Assembly (NCBI GenBank): GCA_026395055.1 | Contig: JAPLZK010000001.1 | Coordinates: 81,527 to 145,526 of the forward strand | Source of the DNA: Candidatus Uhrbacteria bacterium | Lineage (GTDB): Bacteria; Patescibacteriota; Patescibacteriia; UBA9934; GWF2-40-263 | Direction: 5' to 3' | DNA length: 64,000 bases | Shown: in pieces, positions 791 through 17,726 of the stretch | Position numbering within the stretch: the stretch's first letter is position 1 | How the letters are laid out: the number at the start of each line of letters is the position of its first letter | The notes under the pieces: model-generated | What the model saw: only the letters and a program-made list of their open reading frames with translations | Databases searched by the model: none | What the model was told of the DNA's origin: nothing | Translations under genes and position numbers: made by a program

Positions 791-2083
791 TTACATTTTC
801 ACCATCACGCTCTTCACAAGTTCAATCACCTTGCGGTTCAAGACAACCTGTTCAACGTACTGGCGGTATTCTGGGGAATAGATTTGTTTTTTGGATTCTG
901 GGTCTTCATGACGTGCGGCAACCTCATCTAATTCTGTGTCGAGCTCTTCATCTGTTACAGAAAGTGTTTCACGTCTTGCAATTTCACGCATTGCGATTGC
1001 GACCTTAATGCGCATGAGTGCTTGCGGAGTGAAATCGAGTTTGATTTGCACGAGAGTTTTCTTCAGACTCTGTACGTATTTTTCGAAGTCCATTCCTTGT
1101 TCTTCTACACGTGATTTCAATTCACGAATCATCTTTTCGATTTCTTCGTTCAAGAGAAGATCAGGAATATTTTCGAATTGTGTTTTGTTTGCAATGAGTT
1201 CAAGCGCTTCTTTTTCTTGACGCATTTGTTCTTCGCGAATTTTTTCATCCATCAAATTTTTGTGGATAAGGTCGCGCATCATGGCAAAGTCTTTGAGACC
1301 AAGAGATTGTGCGAATGCGTCATCCATTTGTGGAGGTTCAAGATGAAAAAGTTCTTTGAGAACAATTTCGAAATCAATATCTTGGCCTGCCAAAAATTCC
1401 TGTGCATGATCTGCGGGAAACGGAAGTGTGAAGTTTTTTGATTCACCTTCTTTTAATCCAACCAATTGTTCTTTGAACCCAGGAATGTAATATTCTTCCG
1501 CGAGGTAAACTGCATGATTTGGAGATTGTCCGCCTTCAATTCCGACACCTGCTTTTTTCATGTCCATGGACACAACAGCCTTATCTGTTTCCTTCACGAC
1601 TGAACCGGCTTCCGCACGAACTTCTTTTGTTTGCATGCGTGTGAGATCTTTGAGGGCGAGCTCAACATCATGATCTGCAACTTCAGGAACTTTTCCTTGG
1701 ACAGATAATTTTTTGAAATCCGCGAGCTCTTTTACAGACGGCATGCGTGTGACTTCTGCGGTAAAGATGAGTTCATTTCCGGCTGCCATTTTTTCTACTT
1801 CGATTTTTGGAGAACCAACCGTATCGATTTCATTTTTCAAAATGGCTTCCACAAAATATGCGCGCACGATTTTCTCAAGCGCTTCTTCCATAATTTTTGC
1901 TTCCCCAACACGTTGCTTCACGATTTCATATCCTGCCTTTCCTGGACGAAATCCTGGAATGGTTGAGTGTTCAGAAATGTGTTCTGCGGCTGCCTCAAGA
2001 AATGGTTGTTGTTCTTCAACGGACACCGTAAACGTGAGTTTTACGTGACCTTTTTCTTGTTCGTCGATTTGAATGTTTGGCAT
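791..2083 (-). CDS. tig: trigger factor (ribosome-associated chaperone/PPIase)
   Basis: Carries trigger-factor motifs: FRPGKAGYEIVKQRVGE, an N-terminal ribosome-binding region and a long helical C-terminus. The ORF runs to 2170, but the likely start is the internal Met (MPNIQIDEQ...) at 2083. Confidence 0.85.
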   Translation of the reverse strand: MPNIQIDEQEKGHVKLTFTVSVEEQQPFLEAAAEHISEHSTIPGFRPGKAGYEIVKQRVGEAKIMEEALEKIVRAYFVEAILKNEIDTVGSPKIEVEKMAAGNELIFTAEVTRMPSVKELADFKKLSVQGKVPEVADHDVELALKDLTRMQTKEVRAEAGSVVKETDKAVVSMDMKKAGVGIEGGQSPNHAVYLAEEYYIPGFKEQLVGLKEGESKNFTLPFPADHAQEFLAGQDIDFEIVLKELFHLEPPQMDDAFAQSLGLKDFAMMRDLIHKNLMDEKIREEQMRQEKEALELIANKTQFENIPDLLLNEEIEKMIRELKSRVEEQGMDFEKYVQSLKKTLVQIKLDFTPQALMRIKVAIAMREIARRETLSVTDEELDTELDEVAARHEDPESKKQIYSPEYRQYVEQVVLNRKVIELVKSVMVKM

Positions 2084-2196
2084 AAATTTGGATTGAATTT
2101 CTGCGAAAGTGTAGCGAAAACATTCGTGGTTGTCAATTATGAGCCGGTCCCTTTTGAAAAGAAAAAGCACCCGAATGGTTCGGGTGCGAGGGAGAG

Positions 2197-4194
2197 CTAG
2201 CTGCGCTTGGCAGGCTTGCTCATGAGTTTTGCTGTGACTTCACCGGCCTTTTGATGCAGTTCGTTTTGCGTCGATTCCTTCGGGAGAAGGATGTGTGCAA
2301 TGCGAAGGGCGATTTCACGAAAGCAGAGGGCGTAGCGCGTTGCGACGGACGCCTGTTCGTACATGGGATGAGCGAAGTTGAGGGTGATCTTCGCGTAAGC
2401 ACTCAGCTCCTGGAGAATACTTGTGCAGGGATTCCCTGGAAGTTTCGAGGAGTCGAGTTCGAACACGCGACCTTCGTACACAAACGTGTCATCGATCGTG
2501 TTTGAGGTTCGCGTATTTGGCTCGTAATCCTTTTCCACATGAATCGCGCAGTTCGCTGCAATGCCTTCATGTTCCGTATCTGTGACGGTGACATCAAAGG
2601 TTCCTTCCATGGATCCCGTGATGATGCGTGCAGATGTTTTGTCTGGTGCAATCTCGAGTTTGCCATCCCACTTTGCAGGGGGAGTCCACACGAGTTTTGC
2701 ATTCTCCGGAACATGTTCCAGGCGAATGTGACGTTCTTGCTTGCAGTCGAGGTGCAGTGAGGTTTGGGTAAACCGCATCGGCAATCGATCCACAATCTTG
2801 ATGCTCACTTCCGCTTCTGGTGCATTGCGTACATCGCCCATGAGACGGACGACGAGTTTGAAGATGCCAAGTTTCTTTGCCGTGTAGACAACACGCGTTC
2901 CTGTGTTTGGCTCAAGCGAGCCTCCACAAGCACTCGTGTCCCACACGTAGCGTCCTTCCTTCGGATTCTTGATGGTGATCACGCAGGTTTCACCCGGCGT
3001 GAGTTCGATCCGTCCATGATCCAGTTCGATCTTCGCAACCGAATGACGAGACGGTTTTTCGCCTGTGCGATCATGGAGATCTTGGCACAGTTTTGCGATA
3101 AGCGTTTCGTCGTCCGTTGTCTTGATCTCATCGGATTTCATGCCAAGTTCGGCTTCGACCTTGGGGACGATTTCGATACGAAGGCACTCGAGCAGTTTCC
3201 TGCAGAGGACTTCGTCTTCAAGAAGTGAGCCTTTAAATCCGTCACGATCGTTCGTGACGTACTCCCTCTCGTTCAGAGAACTGATTTCAATCCGACCCAT
3301 CACCCACGGATGCCGAAGCACGTGTGTGATTTCGTTTGCAAGCAGACTGTAGCGCGCGTCTTTCAGAAACGGCGCAATGAATTGCTCCCATGCACACACA
3401 GGATTTGGCGAACTCACTTTGACAGGCAACAAATGCTTGTTGTCCGCAACGATGTCCAAGTTCCAGTGAATGTCTCCAAGCGGCTGCGGTCCGTGGAAGC
3501 TACCCTCAATGGGCTTTCCGATCGTCACGCGGGGCTTGAGGGGTTGTTCGACCCACTTTCCATTTTTCAAGTATCGCACGCGGACAATGCGTGCCATGTA
3601 GGGAGAGAGTCTGTCTGCCAGATTCTCAACCAGATACTCCGGTGTACGACACTTCTGTTCGTTCGGAGTTCCAACGTTGAGGTCAAACCAGGTGATGTAG
3701 CTTCCGGTCGTACGCAATTCTTTCGGAATTCCGACAGATACGGGGCTCCAAACCAGGGGCTTCCAACTATTCGGAACGTTTCGATCCGGGAACCAGGCAT
3801 CAATCATCGACGCTTCGGTAAGCGTAATGGAGTGCACACCCTCTTCCGGTGTCTTTGTGAAGGCTACACATTTCTGTCCGTGATGGATAAAGCCAAGGCG
3901 GCCGTTTCCATTTTGCCCATGCTTGTTTTTGTCTCCAAGCGATGTGCTCACACACAGTCCTGTATAGGCATCACGATGATGAACATCCATTCCACTTCCG
4001 TTATCGTAGAACGACACGCAGCGCTTGCCGTCTTGTTCGAAAAACGTGATGAGAATCTCTGATGCGTTTGCATCGACCGCGTTGCAAACGATTTGCTCAG
4101 CGGCCTTTGAAAACTCGATGAATCCGTCGAGAAGTTTCCGGAGAACCTTCCCTGCGACATGATTTCCGCGAACCTTCATTGCTGTTTGACTCAT
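2197..4194 (-). CDS. GHKL (Bergerat-fold) ATPase-domain protein, ~665 aa, unknown function
   Basis: N-terminal GHKL motifs are present: N-box EQIVCNAVDANASEI, G1 box DNGSGMD and G2 box GQNGNGRLG. A beta-rich middle region and helical C-terminus follow, with no MutL, gyrase or Hsp90 signature motifs. The start ATG at 4194 overlaps the upstream stop as ATGA. Confidence 0.7.
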   Translation of the reverse strand: MSQTAMKVRGNHVAGKVLRKLLDGFIEFSKAAEQIVCNAVDANASEILITFFEQDGKRCVSFYDNGSGMDVHHRDAYTGLCVSTSLGDKNKHGQNGNGRLGFIHHGQKCVAFTKTPEEGVHSITLTEASMIDAWFPDRNVPNSWKPLVWSPVSVGIPKELRTTGSYITWFDLNVGTPNEQKCRTPEYLVENLADRLSPYMARIVRVRYLKNGKWVEQPLKPRVTIGKPIEGSFHGPQPLGDIHWNLDIVADNKHLLPVKVSSPNPVCAWEQFIAPFLKDARYSLLANEITHVLRHPWVMGRIEISSLNEREYVTNDRDGFKGSLLEDEVLCRKLLECLRIEIVPKVEAELGMKSDEIKTTDDETLIAKLCQDLHDRTGEKPSRHSVAKIELDHGRIELTPGETCVITIKNPKEGRYVWDTSACGGSLEPNTGTRVVYTAKKLGIFKLVVRLMGDVRNAPEAEVSIKIVDRLPMRFTQTSLHLDCKQERHIRLEHVPENAKLVWTPPAKWDGKLEIAPDKTSARIITGSMEGTFDVTVTDTEHEGIAANCAIHVEKDYEPNTRTSNTIDDTFVYEGRVFELDSSKLPGNPCTSILQELSAYAKITLNFAHPMYEQASVATRYALCFREIALRIAHILLPKESTQNELHQKAGEVTAKLMSKPAKRS

Positions 4195-5702
4195 GTTCTC
4201 TGTACTCCCTTGAGGTGTGAGTTGATTTTTGCGGACTCCCGCATTCCCTCTGTGACCTGGCAAGCACCGTCGCTTGGCCAGAGATCTTTCATACCCTGAT
4301 GAGAAATGAGAAGTTCAAACAACTCATTTCCGATTTTCGGACCAACAATCTGTTTGAGGTATCGATGATCCAATTCACACACAAGCGTTAACGCTCCACG
4401 CAAGACCATAACAGCCTTTGTGAGTTGGTCGAGTTCTTGTGTCGTGAGCTTTTCACCAGGTCGAGGGTTGAATGTTTCTCGTGAGAGATGTTTCAACACA
4501 AGACCCGAAAGATCATGCACATTCGGATTCGATGGTTGGCCTTTGAGGCGCAACAATCGATCAAGTGTGAATTGCGCAATTTCAATTTGGGCATCAAGTA
4601 AAGCTTCCATCGAAGGAGGCCCCTCGGGTTTTTCCGTGGGTTCCTCGACGTGTTCTGTGACAGGCACCACAGGTTGATTGATGCGTGTTTCTCGCACGAC
4701 CTCCAGGATTGGTGGGGGTTTCTTAGCATGACTCCGTTTCGGTGGAGTTGCCTTTGCCAATTTTGGCGCAGGGTCTTCCGTCTTCACGATTTGAGGCACG
4801 GCTGGCTTGATTTGGACTTTGAGCGGATGGCTCACAGACCAGATTCCAGATTCTTCTGTGTCTCGATAGTGACGGAGGTTTTCATCAAATGCTTTTTTGA
4901 GCGCGGGCACGCGCTCGCAAACGATGACGCGCAAGATTTTTTCCATCGTTGCGACCGTAAAACGCTTGTCTTTTCCTTTCGGATTCCACCTCTTCAGGAG
5001 GGTGTAAACAATCTGTTTGTGCAGTCCGGTTTTTTCCGAGATGCGTGTGTCTGTGTTTCCAGGAAATGTTTTTAGAAACCATGCGGGCACATGTGTGAAC
5101 GATGGAATGTCTGGAAACAGTTCTTCTGGCTCGCAGCCGAAAATGGCACGGATCATCATGTCGAAGATCAAATCTTCCAGGCAGGTGACGGGTTTGAGCC
5201 CACCACACAACCCTTTCAGAATCGCGGGCAAAAATTCTTGGCTTGGGAGCCGAGCCGAAGCGCCTTCAATCGTCCAACGACAGAAGACACTTGGGGAAAT
5301 CTTGAAGGCGAGTGCCGTATACAGGTCATTGTCATAAGCTTCGCGCAAAATGTTTAGCTCAAGGACAATGTCTGACCGGTGAACGAGTTGATCATAGGAG
5401 ATGAATGCGCTCAGTTCTGGGTGATTCAGAAGCAGCTTTTGCTTTGCATCACACACCATCCAACCATCAATATCGATTCCCGTAAGGGCTTCGATCCGTT
5501 GTTTCTGCGAAGTCAAAAGATCATTTGTCGGCTTGTTTTCAAGCCAATCCGTCAAGTTTTTGAAGCCAACTCCGTTTTTGCGAAGAACTTCTTGTGCTTG
5601 CGGAATGGTTTTTAGGCCATTCAGTTCCATCCATTGTCGCCAGAGTCCCTCGAGGGAGGTGTCCGGGCCAAAGACAAGCGATTTCAATGACTTCGTTTTC
5701 AC
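4191..5702 (-). CDS. hypothetical protein (503 aa), partner of the GHKL ATPase
   Basis: Long ORF with a GTG start at 5702, preceded by AAGGAGGAAAC. It contains a Pro/Lys-rich linker (PAPKLAKATPPKRSHAKKPPP). Its stop TGA overlaps the downstream ATG, implying translational coupling. Confidence 0.55.
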   Translation of the reverse strand: MKTKSLKSLVFGPDTSLEGLWRQWMELNGLKTIPQAQEVLRKNGVGFKNLTDWLENKPTNDLLTSQKQRIEALTGIDIDGWMVCDAKQKLLLNHPELSAFISYDQLVHRSDIVLELNILREAYDNDLYTALAFKISPSVFCRWTIEGASARLPSQEFLPAILKGLCGGLKPVTCLEDLIFDMMIRAIFGCEPEELFPDIPSFTHVPAWFLKTFPGNTDTRISEKTGLHKQIVYTLLKRWNPKGKDKRFTVATMEKILRVIVCERVPALKKAFDENLRHYRDTEESGIWSVSHPLKVQIKPAVPQIVKTEDPAPKLAKATPPKRSHAKKPPPILEVVRETRINQPVVPVTEHVEEPTEKPEGPPSMEALLDAQIEIAQFTLDRLLRLKGQPSNPNVHDLSGLVLKHLSRETFNPRPGEKLTTQELDQLTKAVMVLRGALTLVCELDHRYLKQIVGPKIGNELFELLISHQGMKDLWPSDGACQVTEGMRESAKINSHLKGVQRT

Positions 5703-5784
5703 GTTTCCTCCTTGTAAAGGGCATCCACCAAACCGTAGGCGGAGAAACGATCCTAGCAAAGCAAAGGTCGAATGTCAAGGGAAT

Positions 5785-5813
5785 CTTGACAAAAAGAAGC
5801 GTTTTCATTAGAT
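5785..5813 (+). promoter_or_regulatory. sigma70-like promoter (TTGACA-17-TAGATT)
   Basis: ttgacaaaaagaagcgttttcattagatt sits about 38 nt upstream of the 5851 start, and GGGAGA lies before the ATG. Confidence 0.45.
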
Positions 5814-5850
5814 TGATCTCTTCCTATATTCAGGAAGACAGGGAGATTCG

Positions 5851-6621
5851 ATGCAACAGAGAGCGACAACATCAGAGACAACCGTTCTTGCAGCCGCAAT
5901 TCCGGCAAAAGATGCGAAAGTGATTCATTTGGGTGCCAAGCAGTTTCAGGTTTGGAAGGCGTTTCACGATGAGTGGATGAAGACGTCACAACCGATTTCT
6001 GCAGAGAGTGCCGAACGTTTGGTGCACAGTGTAATTCCCATGGTGAGCAATTGGTCGAGCGTGCTTTACGAACTCGAACAGAAAGGTGCGATGACCTCAA
6101 GTGAGGAATCAAGCCGCAAGTTTCGCACTCCTGTGACGAATGGGATTGTGATCACGAGCGGGTTCAAGAGTAATGAGCGTCAATGCTGGCCAGAGATTGC
6201 ATCCACGGGAACATCACCAAAACCGAAGAAACTCAAGTTGGTGCAGCCGGCACGAACGCCAGCGCCTGCTGTTGTGGTGCCGAACATTGTTTCGAAAGTT
6301 GCTCTGCAACAGCAACTTCAATCGAAGCAGGATGCATTGCAGACTGGTCTGAGGCGCTGCAAGCAAGATCGTATCGATAGTAAAACGCTTGAGCAGCAAA
6401 CTATTGCCGGTGAAATCGAGTCGATCGAGGAACAGATCACGGCTTTGCAGACACGACTTAGTGAAAAACTTGAACAGCACGAAACAGTTCGTGACACACT
6501 TGCAGAAATGTGTTCGCAGGAATGCACTTCAGAAGAAGCAGGTTTGCAGGATGTGGTCACGGAGATCGCAGACCTCGAATCTGCACTCAGGGTGTATGAC
6601 CGAATCGTTCAGCCGACTTAG
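5851..6621 (+). CDS. hypothetical protein with C-terminal coiled coil
   Basis: ORF of 256 aa with an upstream promoter and SD. The C-terminal third has heptad-like periodicity (IESIEEQITALQTRLSEKLEQ). A terminator follows. Confidence 0.5.
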   Translation: MQQRATTSETTVLAAAIPAKDAKVIHLGAKQFQVWKAFHDEWMKTSQPISAESAERLVHSVIPMVSNWSSVLYELEQKGAMTSSEESSRKFRTPVTNGIVITSGFKSNERQCWPEIASTGTSPKPKKLKLVQPARTPAPAVVVPNIVSKVALQQQLQSKQDALQTGLRRCKQDRIDSKTLEQQTIAGEIESIEEQITALQTRLSEKLEQHETVRDTLAEMCSQECTSEEAGLQDVVTEIADLESALRVYDRIVQPT

Positions 6622-6630
6622 AAGCCCTTA

Positions 6631-6658
6631 CCGCCGGATTTATTCCGACGGTTTTTTC
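6631..6658 (+). terminator. rho-independent terminator
   Basis: ccgccggatttattccgacgg hairpin followed by ttttttc. Confidence 0.5.
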
Positions 6659-6687
6659 TTTGTTTGTAATCTGTATTTACAAGATTT

Positions 6688-6717
6688 ACAAAAAGAAAAA
6701 ACATCGCGGATGCGATG
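6688..6717 (-). terminator. rho-independent terminator for the convergent minus-strand gene
   Basis: acatcgc-gga-gcgatgt hairpin, with a U-run on the minus strand (plus-strand aaaaagaaaaaa). Confidence 0.55.
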
Positions 6718-6718
6718 T

Positions 6719-8428
6719 TTAAGAGTCAGTGCCCGTCTGCTTGGGTTTGCGATTGCTGTTCAAGAGTTCCCAGTATTCACGTTTGCCACGCAGGATTTGT
6801 TCCATGACATTTTTCTTGTCATGGCAAAGAGCAAGATAAACTTCTGCCAGCTGACGCACTTCCTTGTGCGGAATCCAGCGCCAATGGTTTTTGTCGCGTT
6901 CGCGATCGAATGCCTTATAAAATTCTTCGTCCTTGCTATGATCTCCGTAAACAGATCCAGGAGCAAGGTTCGAGAATTCAATGAATGCGGTAAGCGATCG
7001 CATGGTTTTTGCTTTTCGCTTTGAGTCCACTGGATTGCAGACGTGTGCCGTGATGTAGAGCAGACGAAGTTCTGCTTCAAATGTTGTTGGTGCATCTGTG
7101 AACACATGCACGACAGGTTTTTCTGTCTCTGCGACGCGGATTTTTTTGTGTGGCTCAGGAACTTTCTCAAACAAACGCAAGAGTGCGTCTGGAAGTTTCG
7201 GATAGTCCGCCTGAAAGCGGAGCATGTTCTCGCGCTGTGTAAAGGATTCATCGTCTGCATTCAAAAGAGCCAGACGGTGTGCCGTCTCTTCCATTTGCAA
7301 ATGGATTTCAGCAGAAAGGCTGAGTTCGAATAGTTCACACGCTCCGCGAATACGTTCGCAACGCGTTCGAAGTTGCTCGAGTTGCTGTTCTGTTTCAAGA
7401 TACACGTTTTTGATTTCGTGAATCCGATCAATGCTGGTCCGCATGATTGTGTCGTGAGATCCAATCTGAAGGCGTTCCGCTTGCAGTTGTGAAAGAAGAG
7501 CTTCAAGCTTGCGTGCATCGTCTGTGTTTGGATGTTGCGTCATCGCACTCATCCAAACATCGAGGCGTGCGCGTCGCGTTGGTGCTTCTTCGATGAGCGC
7601 ATCGCACAACTGTTTGCGTGCATGGCGATGCTCTTGGTAGAGATCGCGTTCGCTTACAAACCGTTGATACTCCGCGCGTAAATTTCTTGGCAGTGCCACG
7701 GCGTCTTCGTAGACTTCGTGAATCAACTGTTGAATCCGCGTGAGGAGTGACGTGTCGCGTGATGGCGCGCCAGGTTTCGCAATTTGCTCAATTGCGTGAA
7801 GGGCATCGTTTGTCTCTCCTTCGGCAAGATGACGAAGCAGTTGAAGGACGTATTCTCCAGCGGGCTGTCCCGCAAGATTCATGTCTTCGGCAAGCTCTGC
7901 GAGATCGCGCAGGTCTGATGTGATGCCTGGCACGTCATCGCGTTCTTCTGCGACAAGGAGTGATTCCTTGAGCGTTTGAATTTCTGTACGAGCCTGCCCC
8001 AAATCGATTGTTGCCTGTGCGAGTTCTGTTGCGACACGCTGTTGTTCGGTGATCAAACGAGCACTCTCAGATTCTGTTTGAGCAAGTTGTGCCTGCATGG
8101 TTTGTTCTGTTTTACGAGAGGCAACCAAGCTTACACGTACTTTTTCGAGTTCCTCGGTTGCGACACGAGCCGCTTCCTCACTCGTCGCCTTTCCCTTCTG
8201 GAGAGAGGTAGTGCGAAGCGTGAGTGTTTCGATCTGTGTTTCAAGAGAAAGGAGTCGTTCTCGCTCTTGTTCTACGGCTTTGAGTTTTTCTCGTTCAAAG
8301 AACGAACGAGATGTTGGAACGAACGCGCCGGGCGCATGCGGAGTATCAAGTTCGATTGCGCGTAGTGGAAGCGACGCGTCGTTCAAGAGTGCCACAAGCG
8401 GCAGGCGAGGCTTTATTGCTGGTGCCAT
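6719..8428 (-). CDS. hypothetical long coiled-coil protein (~570 aa)
   Basis: ORF to 8512, with the likely start at 8428 (MAPAIKPRLP) preceded by AAGGGGAAAC. A central stretch of ~250 aa is Ala/Glu/Gln/Leu-rich and predicted coiled coil. No recognisable catalytic motif. Confidence 0.5.
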   Translation of the reverse strand: MAPAIKPRLPLVALLNDASLPLRAIELDTPHAPGAFVPTSRSFFEREKLKAVEQERERLLSLETQIETLTLRTTSLQKGKATSEEAARVATEELEKVRVSLVASRKTEQTMQAQLAQTESESARLITEQQRVATELAQATIDLGQARTEIQTLKESLLVAEERDDVPGITSDLRDLAELAEDMNLAGQPAGEYVLQLLRHLAEGETNDALHAIEQIAKPGAPSRDTSLLTRIQQLIHEVYEDAVALPRNLRAEYQRFVSERDLYQEHRHARKQLCDALIEEAPTRRARLDVWMSAMTQHPNTDDARKLEALLSQLQAERLQIGSHDTIMRTSIDRIHEIKNVYLETEQQLEQLRTRCERIRGACELFELSLSAEIHLQMEETAHRLALLNADDESFTQRENMLRFQADYPKLPDALLRLFEKVPEPHKKIRVAETEKPVVHVFTDAPTTFEAELRLLYITAHVCNPVDSKRKAKTMRSLTAFIEFSNLAPGSVYGDHSKDEEFYKAFDRERDKNHWRWIPHKEVRQLAEVYLALCHDKKNVMEQILRGKREYWELLNSNRKPKQTGTDS

Positions 8429-8514
8429 GTTTCCCCTTTTGTTGAAAGCCAGAGAGCGAGCGTAGCAAAAGAAATGCGTTCCGTCAAGATATCGTAATAA
8501 AAAAACCGCCACTC

Positions 8515-9345
8515 TTAGGGAGTTGCGGTGAGATAGTTGGATGTGTGATCCAAAGCATATTTTGGCAACGTGCGCTTTTGCCGGTCTTTCTTTGCTCGTT
8601 CAATCAGGTCAATGATTTCTGCGAGCGACAAGCAACGAACAAGATCTGGTTCCGACGCAAGCTGTGCCGCACTCCATTGTTTGAGGACGCCGGATTGCAG
8701 GAGCTCAATCCAATCATCCATACGTTCTGCCCCGTGTGCCTTTGCTAGTGCGAAGATGGTATTGATTTCGATATTGCATTCCTGCGCATACGCAACAAGG
8801 CGCAGACAGCGACATGGTGAAATGGTTGCCTGCATCTCGGTCAAGAGTTTCACGGTGTTCGTGAAGACAAAAGAGGTGAGACGCATTGTTGTCGTGGTCG
8901 AATTTGGTTCACACGCAAGATGTGTTCCAATGAGTTCCATGAGCCGCTCGTATCGCTCCAAAAATTGATCATGCAGACGACCCTTGAGCCCGTCTTTTTT
9001 TCCTGGATTGTCGAACGTCAGCAACTGTTCTTCGCAGAAGCGAATACATGTAGCGGCATCTTCGGGTGTTGCGAAAACAACATCATGTTTTTCTGCAAGC
9101 AAGAGTTGTTCCACCCACACCATTCCACGAATGTGTGTTCTTGAAACAAAAATCTTTGCGTAGAAACCGGATGCAGGTACTTCTGGATAGAGTTCATCGA
9201 AACGCTCGAGAATGAGTCGCAAGCGACCCCATTCATCTTTTCCAAGACTTTTGATAAATGTCTCTTCTGGTTGTGTGAACTGAATCCATGTTCGAAGAGC
9301 TTGGTTCCGTTCTTTCTTTTTCATTCCGTCCTGAATTTTTGCCAT
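8515..9345 (-). CDS. hypothetical protein (276 aa)
   Basis: Clean ORF with GGGGGA before the ATG. It sits directly upstream of the coiled-coil gene and is probably co-transcribed with it. No recognisable motifs. Confidence 0.5.
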   Translation of the reverse strand: MAKIQDGMKKKERNQALRTWIQFTQPEETFIKSLGKDEWGRLRLILERFDELYPEVPASGFYAKIFVSRTHIRGMVWVEQLLLAEKHDVVFATPEDAATCIRFCEEQLLTFDNPGKKDGLKGRLHDQFLERYERLMELIGTHLACEPNSTTTTMRLTSFVFTNTVKLLTEMQATISPCRCLRLVAYAQECNIEINTIFALAKAHGAERMDDWIELLQSGVLKQWSAAQLASEPDLVRCLSLAEIIDLIERAKKDRQKRTLPKYALDHTSNYLTATP

Positions 9346-9440
9346 GCAATCCCCCTTGAAGCTGAGGGGGCATCATGGGCGAGAATTGACGTTTTGTCAA
9401 GAGTTTGATAGATTCTTCCCTCGCTTGCATAAGGAGAATC

Positions 9441-10439
9441 ATGGACGTTACGTATAATTATCCTGCGAAAAATACGGTGCGAAGTGCGTGGATGGAATTT
9501 CTTCCTGACACCTTCGTGCAATCAGACTCAGGGCTTTATTTGCCTGGACACGAAAACTTGGAACTCGCGGCGTATCTTGAGAAAGGACTCGTTCCTAAAC
9601 AGATGGTCGGAGTGGAACAAGATCCGCTTTTGATTGATCATGTTCGAGAGAATGCCCAAGGGACGTTGATCGTTCATGGGAATGTCACAAGTGCTGTCCA
9701 GTATATTGAGCAAACGCAGACCACAAATTTGCGATTCGCAAATCTGGATCTTTCCAACTCGTACAGAGATTCGATCGAACAAATCTTATCACTGTTTCGT
9801 GTGTTCCCTTCTTCACAAGGTGGATATCTTGCGGTCACAAGCTATAGTGCTCGTGACAATGAGACCCTTACAGAAGGTGTGATCAATACGAGTAAGTTTT
9901 TTTCCGTTGTGAAATCTCAGGAACAATTCTTTGGACCATATGGTCAGATGCTGAATCGGTATCGTGCCATGCACGGAACATGGAATCGTTCGGAAAAAAA
10001 TAAGCATACGCATCTGACGCGCACGCTTGGATTTCTTTGGTGGATTGGTCTTGTGCTTGGGTCTGTTCGTAAGGCGCGTACCGGAAGGTATGTGATAGAC
10101 GAATTGTATCTTTCACAAATCAAAAGCGAGATTGATGCCATCAGTGAAGAGGCGAGACTTCTTGTAGAAGGAGATCGCAACTTTCATCTTGTGCGAAACA
10201 AATCGCTCGGAAAACTTTTTGCGAAACGTAGAAGCGAACTTGTGCCTACGCGACTTCAACAATTCATTCATCTGTCTCGGCGATCTCAGCCAATGCAGAC
10301 ATGGATGCTCCACATTGCGCCAATGACCGGCGCACAAAAACCCACGCACCAAGAGGTGATTGGGGATCTCTGGCAGCTCATGACTCACGGAACGCTCGTC
10401 ATGGTCGACGAGTCTGGAACGCGAGTCACAACAACGTAA
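9441..10439 (+). CDS. hypothetical protein (333 aa)
   Basis: ORF from 9405, with the likely start at 9441 (MDVTYNYP) after AAGGAG. It has weak Rossmann-like features (VGVEQDPLLIDHV) that are not diagnostic. Confidence 0.5.
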   Translation: MDVTYNYPAKNTVRSAWMEFLPDTFVQSDSGLYLPGHENLELAAYLEKGLVPKQMVGVEQDPLLIDHVRENAQGTLIVHGNVTSAVQYIEQTQTTNLRFANLDLSNSYRDSIEQILSLFRVFPSSQGGYLAVTSYSARDNETLTEGVINTSKFFSVVKSQEQFFGPYGQMLNRYRAMHGTWNRSEKNKHTHLTRTLGFLWWIGLVLGSVRKARTGRYVIDELYLSQIKSEIDAISEEARLLVEGDRNFHLVRNKSLGKLFAKRRSELVPTRLQQFIHLSRRSQPMQTWMLHIAPMTGAQKPTHQEVIGDLWQLMTHGTLVMVDESGTRVTTT

Positions 10440-10448
10440 GGAGAATGC

Positions 10449-11126
10449 ATGCGTATTGCAAGATGGCTCATTGAGGGGGGAAAAGCTCTCGTCGAACTTG
10501 GAGATCACTTATTCATGCAACAAGCGCGACTCGATTCGCTTGGTGCGCGTAAGGAACCCCCGAAAGAAAAAGGGGAATATACGGAAGCCGTCGTTGATGC
10601 GCTGATCGCATCACGCGCAGAAAGTTCTGATGAGGATTGGTTGCGCACGGGTGGCCGGCGTGATCAAGAATGTGTACGTTACGGCATTACGCGAGAGCAA
10701 GTTGCGGGAATTCTCGCAGCTGGAACGAAACGTGAAAAGAAAAGCGGTAGTGGGAATGTTCCTGCGCCCGTCGCGCCCCCGTTCGATGATCGCGCAGCAA
10801 GCACACTCTCTTCTCCGGTTGCAAAGACGGGGGAAAAGAATGAACGCAACATGTTTGATGCAAAAGAATGGGGGGAGGTGACGCTCGAGCCGAATGGTGC
10901 GCGTGATCAGATTCCTTTGAAGCCGTTTCGTGACGCGACAGAGGATGACAAAAAGATTGTGGTGCTTGTGTACGTTCAGTGCAAGGCACACGAGAAGGAT
11001 TGGAGCGAGATGCGTCAGCAGCTCTGTTGTACGCGTCGACTGACGCGTCAGCAGGTTGCCGCAATCGTGGCAGAACACACCAGACAGGAAAACAAAAAGT
11101 TTGCGTCGCAAGCCGCACACGCCTAA
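10449..11126 (+). CDS. hypothetical protein with an internally duplicated motif
   Basis: AAGGAG lies before the ATG, 9 nt after the previous gene. The motif C[VT]R..[IL]TR[EQ]QVA[GA]I[LV]A occurs twice, at about aa 75-92 and aa 195-212. Confidence 0.5.
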   Translation: MRIARWLIEGGKALVELGDHLFMQQARLDSLGARKEPPKEKGEYTEAVVDALIASRAESSDEDWLRTGGRRDQECVRYGITREQVAGILAAGTKREKKSGSGNVPAPVAPPFDDRAASTLSSPVAKTGEKNERNMFDAKEWGEVTLEPNGARDQIPLKPFRDATEDDKKIVVLVYVQCKAHEKDWSEMRQQLCCTRRLTRQQVAAIVAEHTRQENKKFASQAAHA

Positions 11127-11133
11127 GACCCTT

Positions 11134-11167
11134 ATCGCCTTCGAAAACTTCGAGGCGATTTTTTTAT
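11134..11167 (+). terminator. rho-independent terminator
   Basis: atcgccttcgaaaacttcgaggcgat hairpin followed by tttttta. Confidence 0.6.
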
Positions 11168-11217
11168 TCGCAACAAAAAAATCGACCCACAGAGTGTGAA
11201 TCGATCTTCTTTTTTAT

Positions 11218-13209
11218 CTAGACGAGGAATCCAACGATGAGCAATGCCACAATGTTCAAAATTTTGATCATTGGGTTGATGGCTGGTCCCGCTGTGTCTT
11301 TGTATGGATCTCCTACGGTGTCTCCGGTGACCGCCGCCTTGTGAGCGTTGGATCCTTTTCCGCCGTAGTTTCCAAGTTCAATATATTTCTTTGCGTTGTC
11401 CCAAGCTCCTCCACCGGTTGTCATAGAGATTGCCATGAACAAACCTGTGACGATCGAACCAATCAAGAGTCCGCCAAGAGCTTTTGGTCCAAAGGCGAAT
11501 CCGACAACGATTGGAGCAAACACGGCGAGCAAGGAAGGAGCGATCATGAAATTGATCGCAGCTTTTGTCACAATGTCTACAGCTTTTGCGTAGTCAGGTT
11601 TTCCGGTTCCATCCATGATTCCTGGAATCTCACGGAACTGACGACGTACTTCATCAACAACAGATCCTGCAGCTTTTCCAACAGCTTCCATGGCGAGGGC
11701 TGCGAATAAGTAGGTGACGATCCCTCCAAGGAATAATCCAGCAAGAACATATGGGTCGCTCACTTCGAATACAACCAATGATCCTTTTGCCGCAAGCGCA
11801 TGCACGTAGTCTCCAAAGAGAACAACAGTTGCGAGTCCGGCAGAACCAATGGCATATGCCTTTGTCACAGCTTTTGTTGTGTTTCCAACCGCATCGAGTG
11901 GGTCTGTGATGTTACGAACGTCTTCTCCAAGATCTGCCATTTCTGCGATTCCACCTGCATTGTCTGTAATTGGACCAAAGGCGTCAATCGCAACAACGAT
12001 TCCTGTTAGAGACAACATGGCCATTGCGGCGATTGCAACTCCGTAAAGTCCAGAGAGAGAGTTTGCGATCAAAATTCCAAAGACGATTGTAAGAACAGGA
12101 AGAGCGGTTGATTTCATGGAAAGACCAAGTCCTGCAATGATGTTTGTTCCGTGTCCAGATTCAGAAGCGGCTGCAAGGTCTTTTACAGGTTGATGATTTG
12201 TTCCTGTGTAATATTCTGTAATCAGAATCAAGGCTGCGGTAATAACGAGTCCAAGAAGTGCAGAGTAATACACGTTCATGGTGTTCAAACCCGCAATGTT
12301 TGCGAGCATATACTTTGTGACAGGGTAAAAACCAATGGCAGCAAGAGCGCCCGCAACAAACAATCCTTTATAAAGTGCGTTCATGATGTTTCCATCTTTC
12401 CCGATCTTGATAAAGAAAGTTCCAACAATTGAACACACGATGGCAATCGCTCCAAGAGCGATTGGGTAAATGACAACTTGTGCGTTGTTTGCAAACAAGA
12501 GGGATCCAAGCAACATGGCTGCAACAGATGTTACAGCATATGTTTCGAATAAGTCCGCAGCCATTCCTGCACAGTCTCCAACGTTGTCTCCAACGTTGTC
12601 TGCGATAACCGCTGGGTTGCGTGGGTCGTCTTCAGGGATTCCTGCTTCTGTTTTTCCAACCAAGTCCGCACCAACGTCTGCAGCTTTGGTAAAAATTCCT
12701 CCACCCAAACGAGCAAAGACAGAAATAAGAGATCCTCCAAATCCGAGTCCAACGAGTGCGTGGACATCATGTGTCATCATGTAAAAAAGGGTGACTCCAA
12801 GAAGCGCGAGTCCAACAACGAAAAATCCTGTCACAACGCCTCCGCGTACGGCGACGTCCATGGCAGCAGAAAGTCCGCTTTTTGCTGCTTCAGTTGTGCG
12901 TACGTTTGCACGTACAGAAACAGACATTCCAATATAACCCGCAACTCCCGAAAGGACTGCTCCTACCAAGAATCCAATTGCGAGGGTCCATCCTAATGCG
13001 AATCCAAGGATAAGGAAGACAACCGCTCCGATCATGGCGATCATTTTATATTGACGCGCCATGTATGCATTCGCTCCTTCTTGGATCGCAAGCGCGATTC
13101 CTTTCATTTTTCCTTCTCCGGCCGGGAGCTTCAAAATCCATTGAGTAAGATAGGCTCCATAAATGAGGGCAAGCAAGCTCGCCCCGATCGCGTACATCGA
13201 AATATTCAT
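11218..13209 (-). CDS. hppA: membrane-bound proton/sodium-translocating pyrophosphatase (V-PPase)
   Basis: A 663-aa polytopic membrane protein carrying the signature [22 protein letters not shown] and conserved [19 protein letters not shown]. Confidence 0.9.
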
Positions 13210-13544
13210 AATGTATGGGTCGAAATGAAAATGACTAAAAACATGCGGCTATCGTAATGAGATATGCGCATTTTGTCAACGATTTTTACGCACAGGAAAA
13301 GACGTTTTATGTATAAATTTAGCCAAAAAATACAAAAAAACGTTTGACAAAAGAGGGAAAAAAGACTACAGTTGATCATACGAAATGCGTTAAATTTTTT
13401 TGTATCAAATTACACATCAAACATTTCTTTGTCCGAACAGCTCTTTTTGTCATGCAGGGGCTGATTGTCATAAAACGCGTTGCTAAACCGGTTTTTTTGG
13501 CTATCTATCAACCGTTTAAGACGGTTGGTTTTATTTTGGTGAAG

Positions 13545-14699
13545 ATGATTGGAGTTCCGGCGTACAGAGGAATCTTTTTCGTGCGTCGTTTCGTGAACAC
13601 AATTCTTTTGCCTGCCAAACACCGTTTTTTTTATTTGCTCTCGAATCGCTACACGGTTCACGCGCTCATGATTATCCTTGTCGGGATCATTGGCATAACA
13701 AATTTTCAGACGCGTGATGTTCGTGCAGAAACATTTGGGCAAAAAAGTATTCTGTATTCTCTTGTCTCTGTTGATGATTCAGAAACTGTCGAGGTGGTTG
13801 AAGCAGGAAAATCCGTTTTGATTCCTGGGGGTCCTTCCAGTTATTTCTCTGATACCACATTAGATACACGTACGCAGTTTCATCAAAATGAGTTAGAACA
13901 ATCCATTGTGCCAACGCAGCCGCAAATTGCTGCATCACGTTCTTCTGTAGAAACATATGTCGTAAAAGACGGTGACACCCTCGGGCGTATTTCCGTTCGT
14001 TTCCACTTAAGTATTAGCACAATTCTTTCAGCAAATGGTTTGACACTGCGCAGTACTCTCCGCCCAGGAGACACGTTGAAAATTCTTCCAAGTGATGGAA
14101 TCATGTATACCGTGAAACGTGGTGACACACTTTCGAAAATCGCGAATGCATTTAACATTGACGCGACGGAAATTGCGTCGGCAAACCAATTCTTTGGAAA
14201 TGCTTCTTTGAAAATCGGAACAGAAATAATCCTTCCAGGCGCAACGCAAACGGCCGCACCGGCAGCAATTGCGCGTAAGCCTGTGAGTATTAAAGATATT
14301 ATTACCAATACCCCCATTCCAAAACCATCTGGATCAACAAGTGTTGGCTGGGTGTGGCCAACAAACTGGCACGTTATCACCCAATACTTCAGCTGGAAGC
14401 ACACAGGAGTTGATATTGATGGAGATTTCACAACATTTAGTATGGCCGCTCATGACGGTGTTGTAAGTTACACAGGTTGGCGTAATGGATACGGACTCAC
14501 CGTTGAAGTTGATCACGGAAATGGATTAAAAACACGTTACGGACACAACTCAAAGATTTTTGTAAGCACGGGAGATGTTGTTGTGGCGGGACAACATTTG
14601 GCACAAACAGGAACAACAGGAAATTCAACCGGAACGCATTTGCACTTTGAAGTGATCTTGAACGGAAAGTTCCAAAATCCATTGTCTTATATTCGATAG
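13545..14699 (+). CDS. LysM-domain M23 family peptidoglycan endopeptidase
   Basis: Two LysM repeats (YVVKDGDTLGRIS..., YTVKRGDTLSKIA...) precede a C-terminal M23 motif (HTGVDIDG...GNSTGTHLHFEV). The ORF opens at 13344 with TTG. The true start is uncertain; an internal Met before the TM helix was chosen. Confidence 0.7.
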   Translation: MIGVPAYRGIFFVRRFVNTILLPAKHRFFYLLSNRYTVHALMIILVGIIGITNFQTRDVRAETFGQKSILYSLVSVDDSETVEVVEAGKSVLIPGGPSSYFSDTTLDTRTQFHQNELEQSIVPTQPQIAASRSSVETYVVKDGDTLGRISVRFHLSISTILSANGLTLRSTLRPGDTLKILPSDGIMYTVKRGDTLSKIANAFNIDATEIASANQFFGNASLKIGTEIILPGATQTAAPAAIARKPVSIKDIITNTPIPKPSGSTSVGWVWPTNWHVITQYFSWKHTGVDIDGDFTTFSMAAHDGVVSYTGWRNGYGLTVEVDHGNGLKTRYGHNSKIFVSTGDVVVAGQHLAQTGTTGNSTGTHLHFEVILNGKFQNPLSYIR

Positions 14700-14700
14700 A

Positions 14701-16141
14701 TTATTCTCGTTGCATTTTTTGACCACGAAACTGCAAAGCTTCGGCTAAATGATGTTCTTCAATCGTTTGTGAGTTCGCGAGATCTGCAATCGTGCGCGCG
14801 ACCTTTCGAACGCGCGATGCTGCGCGTGGCGAAAGTGACTGAGATTCAATGGCGAGGGCTAATAATGTTTTAGCATCTGGTGTAAGAAAACAAACGTGTT
14901 CAAGAAGCGCGGGTGAAATTTCGGCGTTGAGATGACAAGCGGAATCGAAAAATCGATCCGCTTGTTTTTTTCTTGCGGCAATCACACGCGTGAGAATAGA
15001 AGAGGATGTTTCAGAACGAACTTCAGACAAAAGAAGTTCTTGGGAAAGATTTGAGACTTCAATGCGTAAATCAAAACGATCAAGGAGTGGTCCTGACACG
15101 CGCTTTTGATAATTTTGTAATTGCATAGTTGTACAAACACATCGACGTTTTGGATCTGATGCGTATCCGCACGGACATGGATTCATGGCAGCGATCAACA
15201 GAAACCGAGCGGGAAATTTTACGGTCGCTTGCGCGCGAGAAATAGTGACAACACCATCTTCAAGCGGTCCGCGTAAGTGCTCAAGAACGTGTCGTGGAAA
15301 TTCAGGAAGCTCATCGAGAAATAAAACACCTCGATGTGCAAGAGAAATTTCTCCTGGAGTTGGCCAGGTTCCACCACCAACCAAAGAGACCGCAGAAGCG
15401 GAATGATGAGGAGATCGAAATGGACGCTCTTCAATAAGTCCTGAGGAAGAAGTAAGCTCTCCCGCAATTGAGGCAATGCTTGTGACTTCCATAGATTCTT
15501 CTTCTGTAAGGGGCGGAAGAATAGATGGGAATGATTTTGCAAGGAGAGTCTTCCCTGTTCCGGGTGGACCCGATAAAAGAATGTTGTGTCCACCCGCAGC
15601 GGCGATTTCAAGTCCGCGCTTCGCAAGATCTTGTCCTTTTATATAAGAGAAACAATGTTCATTTTGTTGTATGCATTCTCGTCGAAGATAAATTGTTTTT
15701 GCTATCTGTGTTCGATGAAGTAAGTGATCGATGAGTTCACGGAGAGTGGATGCCCCGAATACTTCCAACTCTTTAATGACGGCTGCCTCTTGTTCGTTCT
15801 CTTTTGGAACAAAGATGCTTTGCTTTTGAATACGTCGTGCCATGAGTGCTGTTGTAAGAACGCCTCGAACGGATCGAATGGAACCGTCGAGTGCCAACTC
15901 TCCCAAAACGACGGCGTGCTCAAGGGCTTGGGCGGGGATTTCTCCGCGCGAGACGAGAATAGAGAGCGCGATGGGTAAATCATAAAGCGGTCCTTGTTTG
16001 CGTAAATCTGCGGGTGCGAGATTGATGGTCACGCGTCCGCGCGGAAACGGAAAACCCGTATTTTTGAGTGCGGCACGAATGCGATCACGGGATTCTTTGA
16101 CGGATGTATCCGGGAGCCCTACGATCGTGAAATTACGCATG
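14701..16141 (-). CDS. YifB/ComM family Mg-chelatase-like AAA+ ATPase
   Basis: Lon-like N-terminal domain, Walker A LLSGPPGTGKTLLAK and a C-terminal ChlI-like region. The start was taken at the internal Met MRNFTIVGLPD (16141). Confidence 0.85.
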
Positions 16142-16269
16142 AATCCCCGTTGTTGTACTTGAGGTGATTGAAAACATAAAAAGGAAATAAAAAAAGAACT
16201 CCCAAGAAATTTATCTAGGGAGTTCATTTATAAAAAAAGTTTATCCGTTTTTTTTGACGTTGTCAATGG

Positions 16270-16737
16270 TTATTTGTCTCCATGTTCCGGAAGCGATCGT
16301 CGTGATGAGATAAGAAGGATGACGACTCCGAAGATGATGAGAAGATCTGAAAGATTCACAGCGGATCTTCCGAAGAAGATGATGTAGTCAACCGTGAAGC
16401 CGTAATAAATGCGATCAAAAACGTTTCCAACCGCACCAATCATGATGATCAAACTCGAGAACGCAATTTTTGGATGCGTCGTGAGGTTCTTTACGATCAT
16501 TTCGATTAAGAAGTATCCAATGACGACAGAGATCAGTAAGATAAATTCTCTTCGGAATGGAATATCAAAGGCAAGTCCCCAGTTTTTGTGGATGGCAAGA
16601 TTGAGGAAACTTGGAACAAGCAAAGAGCTTTCGTCTGGAAAATGCGTTAACGCAAAAGCTTTCGCCCACTCATCTAATAAGACGAGAAGAATGGCGGGAA
16701 GCAAGAACCAATAAAGATGTTTTCCAAGATTTTTCAC
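16270..16737 (-). CDS. lspA: lipoprotein signal peptidase II
   Basis: A 155-aa protein with 4 TM segments and conserved NWGLAFD, GAVGNVFDRI and FNLSDL motifs. Confidence 0.8.
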   Translation of the reverse strand: MKNLGKHLYWFLLPAILLVLLDEWAKAFALTHFPDESSLLVPSFLNLAIHKNWGLAFDIPFRREFILLISVVIGYFLIEMIVKNLTTHPKIAFSSLIIMIGAVGNVFDRIYYGFTVDYIIFFGRSAVNLSDLLIIFGVVILLISSRRSLPEHGDK

Positions 16738-17108
16738 ACTTCTTGTGTAAGAGTTTTTTTACATTGAATGCACGAGCTGGATGTTGGACGTGCAAGAAGA
16801 CGGCGTTCGTCAATGGGTTGGTGACAGTATTTGCAGATTCCGTATTCTCCCTTGTCAATTTGCTTCAGTGTTGAATCAACGTCACGTAACGCTTTTTCTA
16901 ATTCGTCTTCTAAAGAAAGGTTGTCTGAAAATTGAGCGACTTCAGACGCGTTTTCGTCTTCGCTGTCTCCGTTATTTGGAAAGTCTGTTCGGAAGGTTTC
17001 TTCCGTTGCGTTTGGATTTCTGTGTGAAAATTTTGAGAGTTCTGTCTCTAGGCGAGATTTTTCTTCCAGTAAGATCGTTTTCGCTTTTGAGGTGAGATCC
17101 TTTGTCAT
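16734..17108 (-). CDS. DksA/TraR family C4-type zinc-finger protein
   Basis: A coiled-coil N-terminus plus CKYCHQPIDERRL...CIQCK. It overlaps the lspA start by 4 nt. Confidence 0.7.
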   Translation of the reverse strand: MTKDLTSKAKTILLEEKSRLETELSKFSHRNPNATEETFRTDFPNNGDSEDENASEVAQFSDNLSLEDELEKALRDVDSTLKQIDKGEYGICKYCHQPIDERRLLARPTSSSCIQCKKTLTQEV

Positions 17109-17724: not shown

Positions 17725-17726
17725 GG

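Follow-up and report, generated by a model that had tools for sequence, protein, structure and literature searches.

A swappable nine-kilobase gene island with a MORC/MutL-like ATPase and a methyltransferase-fold protein at the hppA-tig junction of Candidatus Uhrbacteria

We analysed a 64,000-nt stretch (hereafter the window, W) of a Candidatus Uhrbacteria metagenome-assembled genome (contig JAPLZK010000001.1, positions 81,527 to 145,526; proteins MCX6714274-79), in which five open reading frames (ORFs) separate a GHKL ATPase gene and its partner from the pyrophosphatase gene hppA. These ORFs make up the right-hand part of an island of seven genes, ordered GHKL-P / A / B / X / MT-R, which occupies exactly the stretch between the hppA terminator hairpin and the tig promoter. 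The island is an accessory, swappable 9-kb cassette with presence/absence and allele-replacement polymorphism among close relatives, a property that no single sequence could have revealed. Its products include an ATPase related to MORC and MutL and a protein, MT, with a predicted class I methyltransferase fold. In the shorthand used here P is the GHKL partner, and the five ORFs encode A (p256), B (p569), X (p276), MT (p332) and R (p225). The island, its genes and its flanks are as follows.

2119-11176, no strand: whole accessory island, 9,058 bp, set against the 43-bp empty site of close relatives
2197-4194, minus strand: GHKL ATPase, 665 amino acids (aa) from ATG 4194, MORC/MutL-like
4191-5702, minus strand: P, about 503 aa from GTG 5702, with putative helix-turn-helix (HTH) regions
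5851-6621, plus strand: A, with a conserved N-terminal domain (about residues 25-115, putative winged helix) and a C-terminal coiled coil (172-254)
6719-8428, minus strand: B (597 aa in the initial annotation), with an N-terminal coiled coil and a helical C-terminal region
8515-9345, minus strand: X, helical, with a conserved PCxCLRL Cys pair; an optional island member
9441-10439, plus strand: MT, with a predicted N-terminal class I S-adenosylmethionine (SAM)-methyltransferase fold (residues about 1-150, 9441-9890) and a helical/beta C-terminal half
10449-11126, plus strand: R, with an N-terminal helix and two predicted three-helix HTH-like repeats joined by a disordered linker
791-2083, minus strand: tig (flank), its promoter (2108-2136) kept at the island border
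11218-13209, minus strand: hppA (flank), its terminator hairpin kept at the island border

The borders were defined by close relatives that lack the island. In these genomes (L105-L109; P0007, in the same 90% hppA cluster) hppA and tig are 93.7% and 88.6% identical to those of the window, and tig directly follows hppA with a 118-bp gap, an arrangement present on 14 contigs from several samples. Alignment by blastn placed L105 positions 3184-12032 on W 19998-11177 and L105 12076-13404 on W 2118-790. The neighbourhood is otherwise identical and runs ChlI-like, M23, hppA, tig, AP endonuclease, ..., rnpA, rpmH, dnaA, dnaN. A core (housekeeping) gene set would be present in all close relatives; here the hppA-tig junction was found empty.

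A different state of the same locus is found in L002, which is as close to the window as the empty-site relatives are and carries a six-gene version of the island. Proteins flanking the island are 82-96% identical between the two genomes (tig 87-88%, hppA 96%, M23 peptidase 82%, ChlI-like protein 83%); the corresponding values for the island proteins are 42-43% for GHKL, 32-35% for P, 38% for A (over 96 aa), 27% for B, 45% for MT and 62-65% for R. At the DNA level only window positions 791-2118 and 10514-19998 align with L002, and no nucleotide similarity remains across 2119-10513. Relationships of cassette and flank are also at odds, in that the L002 GHKL is nearer to that of L005 (54%) than to that of the window, whereas tig shows the opposite relationship. 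Among 1.84 billion representative proteins, the nearest non-self allele of MT is 47% identical. One genus-level clade therefore holds three states: empty, six-gene allele and seven-gene allele. The empty site, together with the deeply divergent L002 allele, indicates that the island is dispensable and is exchanged as a cassette.

We found no att-like direct repeats at the island borders, and no integrase, transposase, relaxase or replication genes among the island proteins (Pfam, PHROGs). Since att-like repeats, integrase and transposase are missing, homologous recombination in the conserved flanks is presumably the simplest mechanism of exchange. The island does not qualify as a prophage or integrative mobile element, which would be recognised by an integrase or transposase, att repeats and phage or plasmid homologues. 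There is no tRNA or Rfam element in or beside it. Base composition, which the initial annotation had proposed to plot, sets the block apart: GC content at third codon positions (GC3) is 0.45-0.57 in the island genes relative to 0.34-0.41 in the flanks.

The gene set recurs well beyond the window and L002. Contigs carrying p332 homologues first gave the order tig, GHKL (-), P (-), A (+), B (-), MT (+), R (+), hppA, and a scan of one genome per species identified eight such loci, all in Uhrbacteria or Patescibacteria; the same order is seen in L002, L005, L007, L010 and L012-L016. Hidden Markov models (HMMs) built locally from the first orthologues recovered GHKL, P, A, B, X, MT and R with order and strands unchanged. 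X is optional, being present only in W, L006, L013, L015 and L016. In L005 an unrelated 309-aa ORF (8817-9746, plus strand) takes the place of the minus-strand X of other lineages; no similarity of this ORF to any island family was detectable.

More distant genomes show the junction without the island. In five low-GC loci with hppA at 66-69% identity, tig follows hppA in the same orientation, spaced by 57, 58 and 138 bp in three of the five and by 0.8 and 3.7 kb in the other two; the 3.7-kb gap, in L030, contains acyltransferases and an adenylate-forming enzyme, and L041 also has the RNase HII ... AP endonuclease flanks. A metagenome scan based on hppA returned only relatives at 69% identity or less, none of them Uhrbacteria, and served as the outgroup set. 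As the initial annotation had anticipated might be the case, tig and hppA are adjacent elsewhere, both in three distant low-GC lineages and in very close relatives. In L105-L109 the hppA-tig junction is only about 4-6 kb from rnpA-rpmH-dnaA-dnaN, so that in these relatives the island site adjoins the chromosomal replication-origin genes.

The five ORFs are real genes at the positions given. Against L006, a comparison strain with 86% DNA identity to the window, the ratios of nonsynonymous to synonymous substitution (dN/dS, Nei-Gojobori) are 0.18 for p256, 0.11 for p569, 0.14 for p276, 0.08 for p332 and 0.06 for p225, and on such ratios all island genes are under purifying selection. Orthologues in other genomes point the same way. 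The initial annotation had called these genes ORFans, a label that does not survive the recurrence of all five families in synteny in at least eight Uhrbacteria species. Its statement that they carry no placeable motif holds in so far as none of the five proteins reaches any family threshold in Pfam, PHROGs, PADLOC or NCBIfam, and fails for p332, which has a class I methyltransferase fold. That the ORFs are genome-specific ORFans, or chance non-coding ORFs, can be regarded as already refuted: the missing database matches would suit such an origin, but it is contradicted by dN/dS of 0.06-0.18, by syntenic orthologues, by 35 MT clusters (E<=1e-30) and 21 R clusters, and by a confident structure model of MT. 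The earlier description is therefore partly supported. About 9 kb of lineage-restricted, unannotated genes, including the GHKL pair, do lie as an insertion inside a conserved core neighbourhood; they are not ORFans without a placeable motif.

Several gene calls needed correction. The start of the 597-aa protein is almost certainly ATG 8428, which leaves a product of 569 aa in agreement with the NCBI call. Because B starts there, the 2-nt gap reported between X and B is an artefact of taking the longest ORF; the true spacer is 86 nt and holds a promoter-like site and a Shine-Dalgarno (SD) sequence. With this promoter-like site in the X-B spacer, the five genes probably form four transcription units, not three. 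The coiled coil that had been put at about 250 residues shrinks by a crude heptad score against shuffles to about 150 heptad-like residues (73-191 and 354-390 in the 597-aa numbering). The MT start at ATG 9441, preceded by the SD AAGGAG, and the 9-nt gap between MT and R were both correct.

The fold of MT was placed by structure. An AlphaFold (AF2) model from 13 sequences had a mean predicted local distance difference test score (pLDDT) of 87.5 and a predicted template-modelling (TM) score of 0.89. Foldseek against the PDB returned 47 chains at E<=1e-3, all of them methyltransferases, aligned over about 140-150 residues with TM scores of 0.5-0.6 (target). These comprised RsmD-like enzymes (2fhp/2ift), PmtA, fibrillarin, KsgA, MnmM and natural-product enzymes, at E 5e-5 to 1e-3 and probability 1.00. 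The modelled domain has the Rossmann-like alpha/beta fold of class I methyltransferases, an acidic residue at the end of beta-2, the position that in this class binds the ribose of SAM, and a Gly loop after beta-1, the last with a single Gly and not GxGxG. E59 is invariant in 13/13 orthologues. In 110 remote members the signature reads hLPG...LE (G36 in 98/110; E41 acidic in 110/110), GxE (E59 acidic in 109/110), NLD(F/Y)xG (D103 in 96/100) and R(D/E) (R138 in 68/70). With a signature so conserved, MT looks like an active enzyme. The motif IV tetrapeptide (D/N/S)-P-P-(Y/F/W) of DNA/RNA amino-methyltransferases (N6A, N4C, m2G; RsmD-like) was not found; after beta-4 stands NLD(F/Y)xG, in which the Asp and the aromatic residue are kept and there is no Pro-Pro.

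Curated profiles do not know this protein. For 13 members and 10 remote homologues there was no match to any Pfam or NCBIfam HMM even at E<=10, and a sequence-profile search of the PDB with MT gave none either, so that the fold is detected by structure only. MT is thus an undescribed methyltransferase-like family, absent from Pfam, NCBIfam, PHROGs and PADLOC. Homologues of p332 fell into 12 clusters at 34-45% identity, and a profile search of the 1.84 billion representatives collected 191 relatives (35 clusters at E<=1e-30). About 35 of the 191 are full-length orthologues; the others share the N-terminal domain only, within proteins of 250-1,179 aa in which no Pfam or PHROG domain was found. 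A scan of IMG/VR with the MT profile found nothing, nor did tblastn of the Uhrbacteria MT against GenBank phages and PLSDB plasmids. When the MT model was compared with BFVD, the best viral fold matches spanned the full length (307-332 columns, TM 0.42-0.46) and were giant-virus 'chromo domain-containing' proteins of Tetraselmis virus 1 and Hyperionvirus. The C-terminal half of MT may have giant-virus relatives.

R, encoded immediately downstream, is built from two copies of one module. The duplicated 18-aa motif noted in the initial annotation is real and forms the core of a duplicated domain of about 55 aa; by hhalign, repeat 1 (residues about 43-100, 10575-10748) and repeat 2 (about 160-222, 10926-11114) match each other with probability 96.5% and E 8.5e-10 over 53 columns. 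The suggestion that the motif is a small DNA-binding element fits the AF2 model (pLDDT 70.6 overall and 80-90 in the two repeats), which predicts three-helix bundles at residues 46-99 and 165-224; the fold matches are weak, mostly to homeodomains, KorA, sigma region 4 and DeoR, and a sequence-profile comparison with Engrailed is likewise weak (E 0.3-0.7). The motif lCVrlGLTPeQVagvLs (residues 73-92 and 193-210) also resembles, over 19 aa only, the repeat junction LCQAHGLTPEQVVAIAS of TAL effectors. We rejected this assignment. The likeness is short, the per-repeat scores are not significant, and the whole-protein E of 0.035 arises solely from summing many weak repeat matches; the architecture is also wrong, TAL effectors having many tandem 33-35-aa repeats with hypervariable di-residues and R two copies about 118 aa apart. 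The resemblance is probably chance or convergence in a helix-turn-helix.

The R module, which has 21 orthologue clusters in its own right, is repeatedly joined to the MT domain. The motif '..G(I/L/F)T..QVA..I.A..R' is fused to an MT domain in several proteins, lying C-terminal to it in P0065 and P0070 and repeated in P0086, P0089 and P0113. In a 522-aa protein of a 595-kb uncultured phage the module is N-terminal and fused to an MT-like domain. From these fusions it follows that MT and R, as judged by their sequences, form a functional pair. The phage protein (LR756511.1; L104 3707-5275) carries the R-type motif AAQYGVSLATISAITAWTKIWG, and its gene lies between HNH-like and WGR/PARP-like genes, downstream of a sigma-70 region-4-like gene; these neighbours were assigned by sequence reading only.

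At the other end of the island, the GHKL protein matches Pfam HATPase_c_3 at 37 bits, and its profile is closest to MORC2 (E 2e-5), followed by MORC3/4, by PMS1/MLH1/MutL at 1e-4 and, more weakly, by SMCHD1. The matches end at about residue 120-140. N38, D64, G66, G68, G96 and G98 are invariant in 8 orthologues, and the N-box Asn and the G1/G2 glycines of the Bergerat fold are kept also in the distant homologue in L018. The protein is a MORC/MutL-like ATPase whose ATP-binding motifs are intact. Its ATG overlaps the stop codon of P as ATGA, with an SD (AAGGGAG) upstream, and this overlap marks GHKL as translationally coupled to P. P itself starts at GTG 5702 behind the SD AAGGAGG and has orthologues in all loci. 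It shows a weak match to HTH_23 and another to an XRE-type PDB entry; a PDB sequence-profile search with P gave nothing significant. Its distant homologue in L018 (hhalign E 5.7e-6) matches HTH_31 at 28.1 bits, above threshold.

The remaining proteins are less informative. Orthologues of A are 335-397 aa long and have a middle domain of about 130 aa that is absent from the A of the window; the L018 protein in the position of A gives weak MarR_2/HTH_34 matches, with homology to A not established (hhalign E 0.022). B has orthologues in 11 loci and no invariant polar residues. A word-indexed search with the single 597-aa sequence was swamped by coiled-coil words and returned, apart from the query, just one relative at 89%; the orthologues of B came from synteny and the local HMMs. 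X has only few invariant polar residues, and in L015 and L013 it contains two or three copies of the C-terminal domain. PDB sequence-profile searches with B and X returned nothing significant. P, A, B and X thus appear mostly helical or coiled-coil, with weak indications of HTH or winged-helix folds.

The spacers between these genes contain the regulatory elements listed here.

5750-5830, no strand: divergent back-to-back promoter-like sites for P-GHKL and A, 89% identical to L006
6699-6720, minus strand: terminator-like hairpin at the end of B, in the convergent A/B spacer
8429-8514, minus strand: X-B spacer, 86 nt, TTGACG-17-TACGCT and AAAGGGG-N4-ATG for B
9372-9414, no strand: divergent back-to-back promoter-like sites for X and MT, in an intergenic region 96% identical to L006
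11139-11165, plus strand: terminator-like hairpin after R, within the island

A further terminator-like hairpin follows GHKL. The initial annotation had credited each unit with a reasonable SD or promoter and with convergent terminators; promoter-like pairs and hairpins are indeed present, but their overall numbers are not above shuffle expectation. The spacers stand out by conservation. The promoter-bearing ones (5760-5850, 8429-8514, 9346-9440 and 11127-11217) are 89-96% identical to L006, compared with 78-91% for the island coding sequences; the X-B spacer, for example, is at 92% and its adjoining coding sequences at 78-86%. Because they are more conserved than the coding sequence, the promoter spacers suggest operator sites and autoregulation by the predicted HTH proteins of the island itself. 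The convergent A/B spacer (6622-6718) is just 66% identical to L006.

Elsewhere the set is found in distant, rearranged or partial form. On the 61% GC contig L018, a distant version of the complete set consists of a winged-helix/coiled-coil protein, an HTH_31 protein, GHKL, a coiled-coil protein, an MT-R fusion and an R-like protein. L103 (GCA_964494275.1) has B, MT, a 465-aa protein in the position of R and a 105-aa ORF, followed by tig on the opposite strand. An hhalign comparison of the L018 and L103 proteins with the A, B, X and R families and with P supported homology in just two cases, P (E 5.7e-6) and the L103 version of B (E 6e-4); for all other assignments the basis is position and architecture. 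The 1,179-aa protein P0113 (L100/L101 6278-9817) contains two MT-like domains and several R-type motifs and occurs alone, without GHKL. Taken together, these arrangements indicate that MT-R is the more widespread core, to which GHKL-P-A-B was added in the Uhrbacteria-type system. Although rearranged, the L103 set likewise neighbours tig; its contig carries no hppA. P0113 has around it bipA, an FGase gene and a gene that weakly matches a PT-TG domain.

Both ends of the Uhrbacteria locus have collected other genes. On the minus strand at 3-704, running off the start of the window, lie the N-terminal 234 aa of an AAA_23/SMC_N-type ATPase, best matched by PtuA of the defence system Septu (PADLOC E 7.4e-20; Pfam AAA_23 47 bits). 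A PtuA-like gene beside tig was seen only in this genome, L002 and L105 having AP endonuclease as the left neighbour of tig, so that here accessory genes adjoin tig on either side. The R-hppA junction holds 2.7-8 kb of extra genes in L010 (12212-13796), L013 (6876-14636) and L016 (11700-16100), which makes it a second insertion point. These genes are mostly unannotated, or else unrelated; L013 has an amidohydrolase and a GNAT gene.

What the island does can be addressed by analogy. Our tentative preference is for a conflict or defence system of the paraMORC kind, directed at DNA and linked to methylation. In such a system MT, targeted by R and/or by its own C-terminal half, would mark resident DNA by methylation. 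GHKL and the HTH-rich P, with the coiled-coil proteins A, B and X, would be recruited to unmarked or foreign DNA, and the GHKL complex would then clamp, compact or otherwise disable that DNA in an ATP-dependent manner; the deep divergence of alleles would reflect diversification of specificity. There is precedent in paraMORC and MORC GHKL ATPases, which have been inferred to act in restriction-modification (R-M)-like systems with methylases (PMC2292703). According to PMC6509639 and PMC12455944, bacteria of the candidate phyla radiation (CPR, Patescibacteria) mostly lack CRISPR-Cas and other classical defences and exchange genomic islands mostly among themselves. This scarcity and the PtuA-like neighbour lend contextual support to a defence role.

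Several observations weigh against that proposal. None of the seven proteins yielded a recognisable nuclease, helicase, toxin or other effector domain (Pfam, PHROGs, PADLOC and NCBIfam for all; PDB searches for B and X), and PADLOC-DB 2.0 models match only at a generic GHKL or coiled-coil level, namely MzaB at E 0.008-0.014 in the GHKL core only and LmuB/JetC/PbeC at E about 1e-3 in the coiled coil. The DNA-binding assignments of A, B, X and P come from weak matches, and Foldseek with the R model gave no significant match (best E about 1). The best structural neighbours of MT are rRNA, lipid and small-molecule methyltransferases, and since it also lacks the DNA amino-methyltransferase tetrapeptide its substrate could be non-DNA. 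Finally, lineages with no more than 56-66% identity in tig keep the same gene order at one site. Defence systems usually turn over between unrelated types, and such persistence would be unusual. A more specific form of the proposal would take the missing effector as a defining trait: a hitherto unrecognised, nuclease-free class of defence or epigenetic silencing, consisting of a MORC-like GHKL, coiled-coil/HTH adaptors and a new methyltransferase superfamily with detachable HTH specificity modules, maintained in CPR bacteria as deeply divergent alleles that recombination can swap. We consider this doubtful; if true, the class would give methylation-guided MORC silencing a prokaryotic equivalent.

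The same persistence would suit an accessory, non-defensive module that organises or regulates DNA. The HTH, coiled-coil and GHKL proteins would then assemble into a MORC-like complex of the nucleoid or of silencing, the methyltransferase would act as epigenetic regulator, and the module would tune expression of the host itself, for instance for an episymbiotic lifestyle, and would not fight invaders. Mostly helical or coiled-coil proteins with HTH-type indications and no recognised nuclease, a gene order kept under purifying selection at a single site in deep Uhrbacteria lineages, and promoter spacers more conserved than coding sequence, as in tight autoregulation, all agree with such a role. 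It is nevertheless unlikely, given that close relatives with otherwise identical neighbourhoods lack the island entirely, that alleles of equally close relatives are only 27-45% identical, as is typical of conflict loci, and that a Septu-type ATPase lies next door. Doubt about the substrate leads to another possibility, to which we give still less credence: MT could methylate RNA, protein or a small molecule within a lineage-specific modification or stress pathway unrelated to DNA. RsmD-like rRNA methylases, PmtA, fibrillarin, KsgA and natural-product methyltransferases are indeed its best structural neighbours, and it has neither a DPPY-type motif nor a match to a DNA-methylase HMM. These fold neighbours, however, reach a TM of only about 0.3 of the query and reflect the generic Rossmann core, and MT is persistently paired or fused with HTH-like modules and co-inherited with a MORC/MutL-like GHKL and HTH proteins.

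Improbable, and more so than either of these, is a selfish origin: an integrated element, for instance a cryptic integrative or addiction cassette, would maintain itself by means of its own, and the methyltransferase and its partners would serve that element and not the host. Sharply bordered presence/absence polymorphism, the higher GC3 of the block, incongruent cassette and flank relationships, and relatives of the MT domain in a 595-kb phage could all be read in its favour. Yet neither mobility or replication genes (integrase, transposase or relaxase; Pfam, PHROGs) nor att-like border repeats nor a nearby tRNA were found, and the Uhrbacteria MT has no relatives in IMG/VR, GenBank phages or PLSDB plasmids. 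The island is, moreover, always at the hppA-tig site, pointing to homologous exchange and not to site-specific insertion. We therefore retain the methylation-linked defence system as a candidate function, because the island is under purifying selection, optional in close relatives and exchanged as divergent alleles.

The closest described system is paraMORC (Iyer, Abhiman, Aravind 2008, PMC2292703). As in paraMORC, a MORC/MutL-like GHKL, here with conserved ATP-binding motifs, lies in a multi-gene neighbourhood with a methyltransferase-fold protein, the distribution is patchy and the unit is exchanged horizontally; action on DNA superstructure in response to an epigenetic mark, inferred for paraMORC, would be shared. 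Where paraMORC has a DNA methylase, the island has a co-inherited protein whose methyltransferase fold is predicted from a structure model and which belongs to no described DNA-methylase family, and P, A, B and X have no paraMORC counterpart. The SF-II helicase and endonuclease (RE-fold, Vsr or a fused C-terminal nuclease) of paraMORC were not detectable in the island. Because helicase and nuclease were looked for and not found, we describe the island as working like the paraMORC kind, not as a member of it.

With Type I/III R-M, BREX, DISARM, MADS and Mza the island shares inheritance of several genes, including an ATPase, as one accessory unit, deeply divergent alleles, and a methyltransferase with a separate, putative DNA-recognition partner in R. 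The two repeated modules of R recall the two target-recognition halves of HsdS; R is, however, an HTH-like repeat protein and not an HsdS-type target-recognition domain. Unlike those systems, the island matches no PADLOC or NCBIfam model beyond the GHKL core of MzaB and has no HsdR, PglZ, phospholipase-D or helicase component. It also resembles a defence-island hot spot, in that a fixed hppA/tig junction is empty or filled with alternative divergent cassettes and has a PtuA-like ATPase beside it. In contrast to such hot spots, the alternatives are homologous versions of one system in conserved order, which is more like an allelic specificity locus.

Of single proteins, MT is most like the RsmD-like class I methyltransferases, with which it shares the Rossmann-type fold (Foldseek probability 1.00) and the order of motifs: Gly loop followed by a conserved Glu, acidic beta-2 end, and an Asp ending beta-4. 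It differs from them in having NLD(F/Y)xG for DPPF, in the lack of HMM-level similarity, and in an extra 180-aa helical/beta C-terminal half together with an obligate HTH-like partner. With 191 representatives among 1.84 billion proteins, no Pfam domain, an active-site-like signature, a recurrent HTH-like partner and a member in a huge phage, it constitutes a new enzyme family. In the island as a whole, the GHKL core is the sole part that can be assigned to a described family, and the models of known systems do not match. The island takes up a noticeable share of a tiny CPR genome, and how CPR bacteria resist phages and foreign DNA is, according to PMC6509639 and PMC12455944, an open question, for which the island provides a concrete, testable candidate.

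The final parallel is with the eukaryotic MORC and SMCHD1 proteins. The GHKL profile is closest to MORC2/3/4, and in both cases coiled-coil proteins and a methyltransferase are associated with the ATPase. Evidence of homology is confined to the ATPase core, there are no CW or hinge domains, and the coiled coils of the island are on separate proteins. If the GHKL protein does act on DNA in response to a methylation mark, the island would offer a simple bacterial model for MORC-type ATPases.

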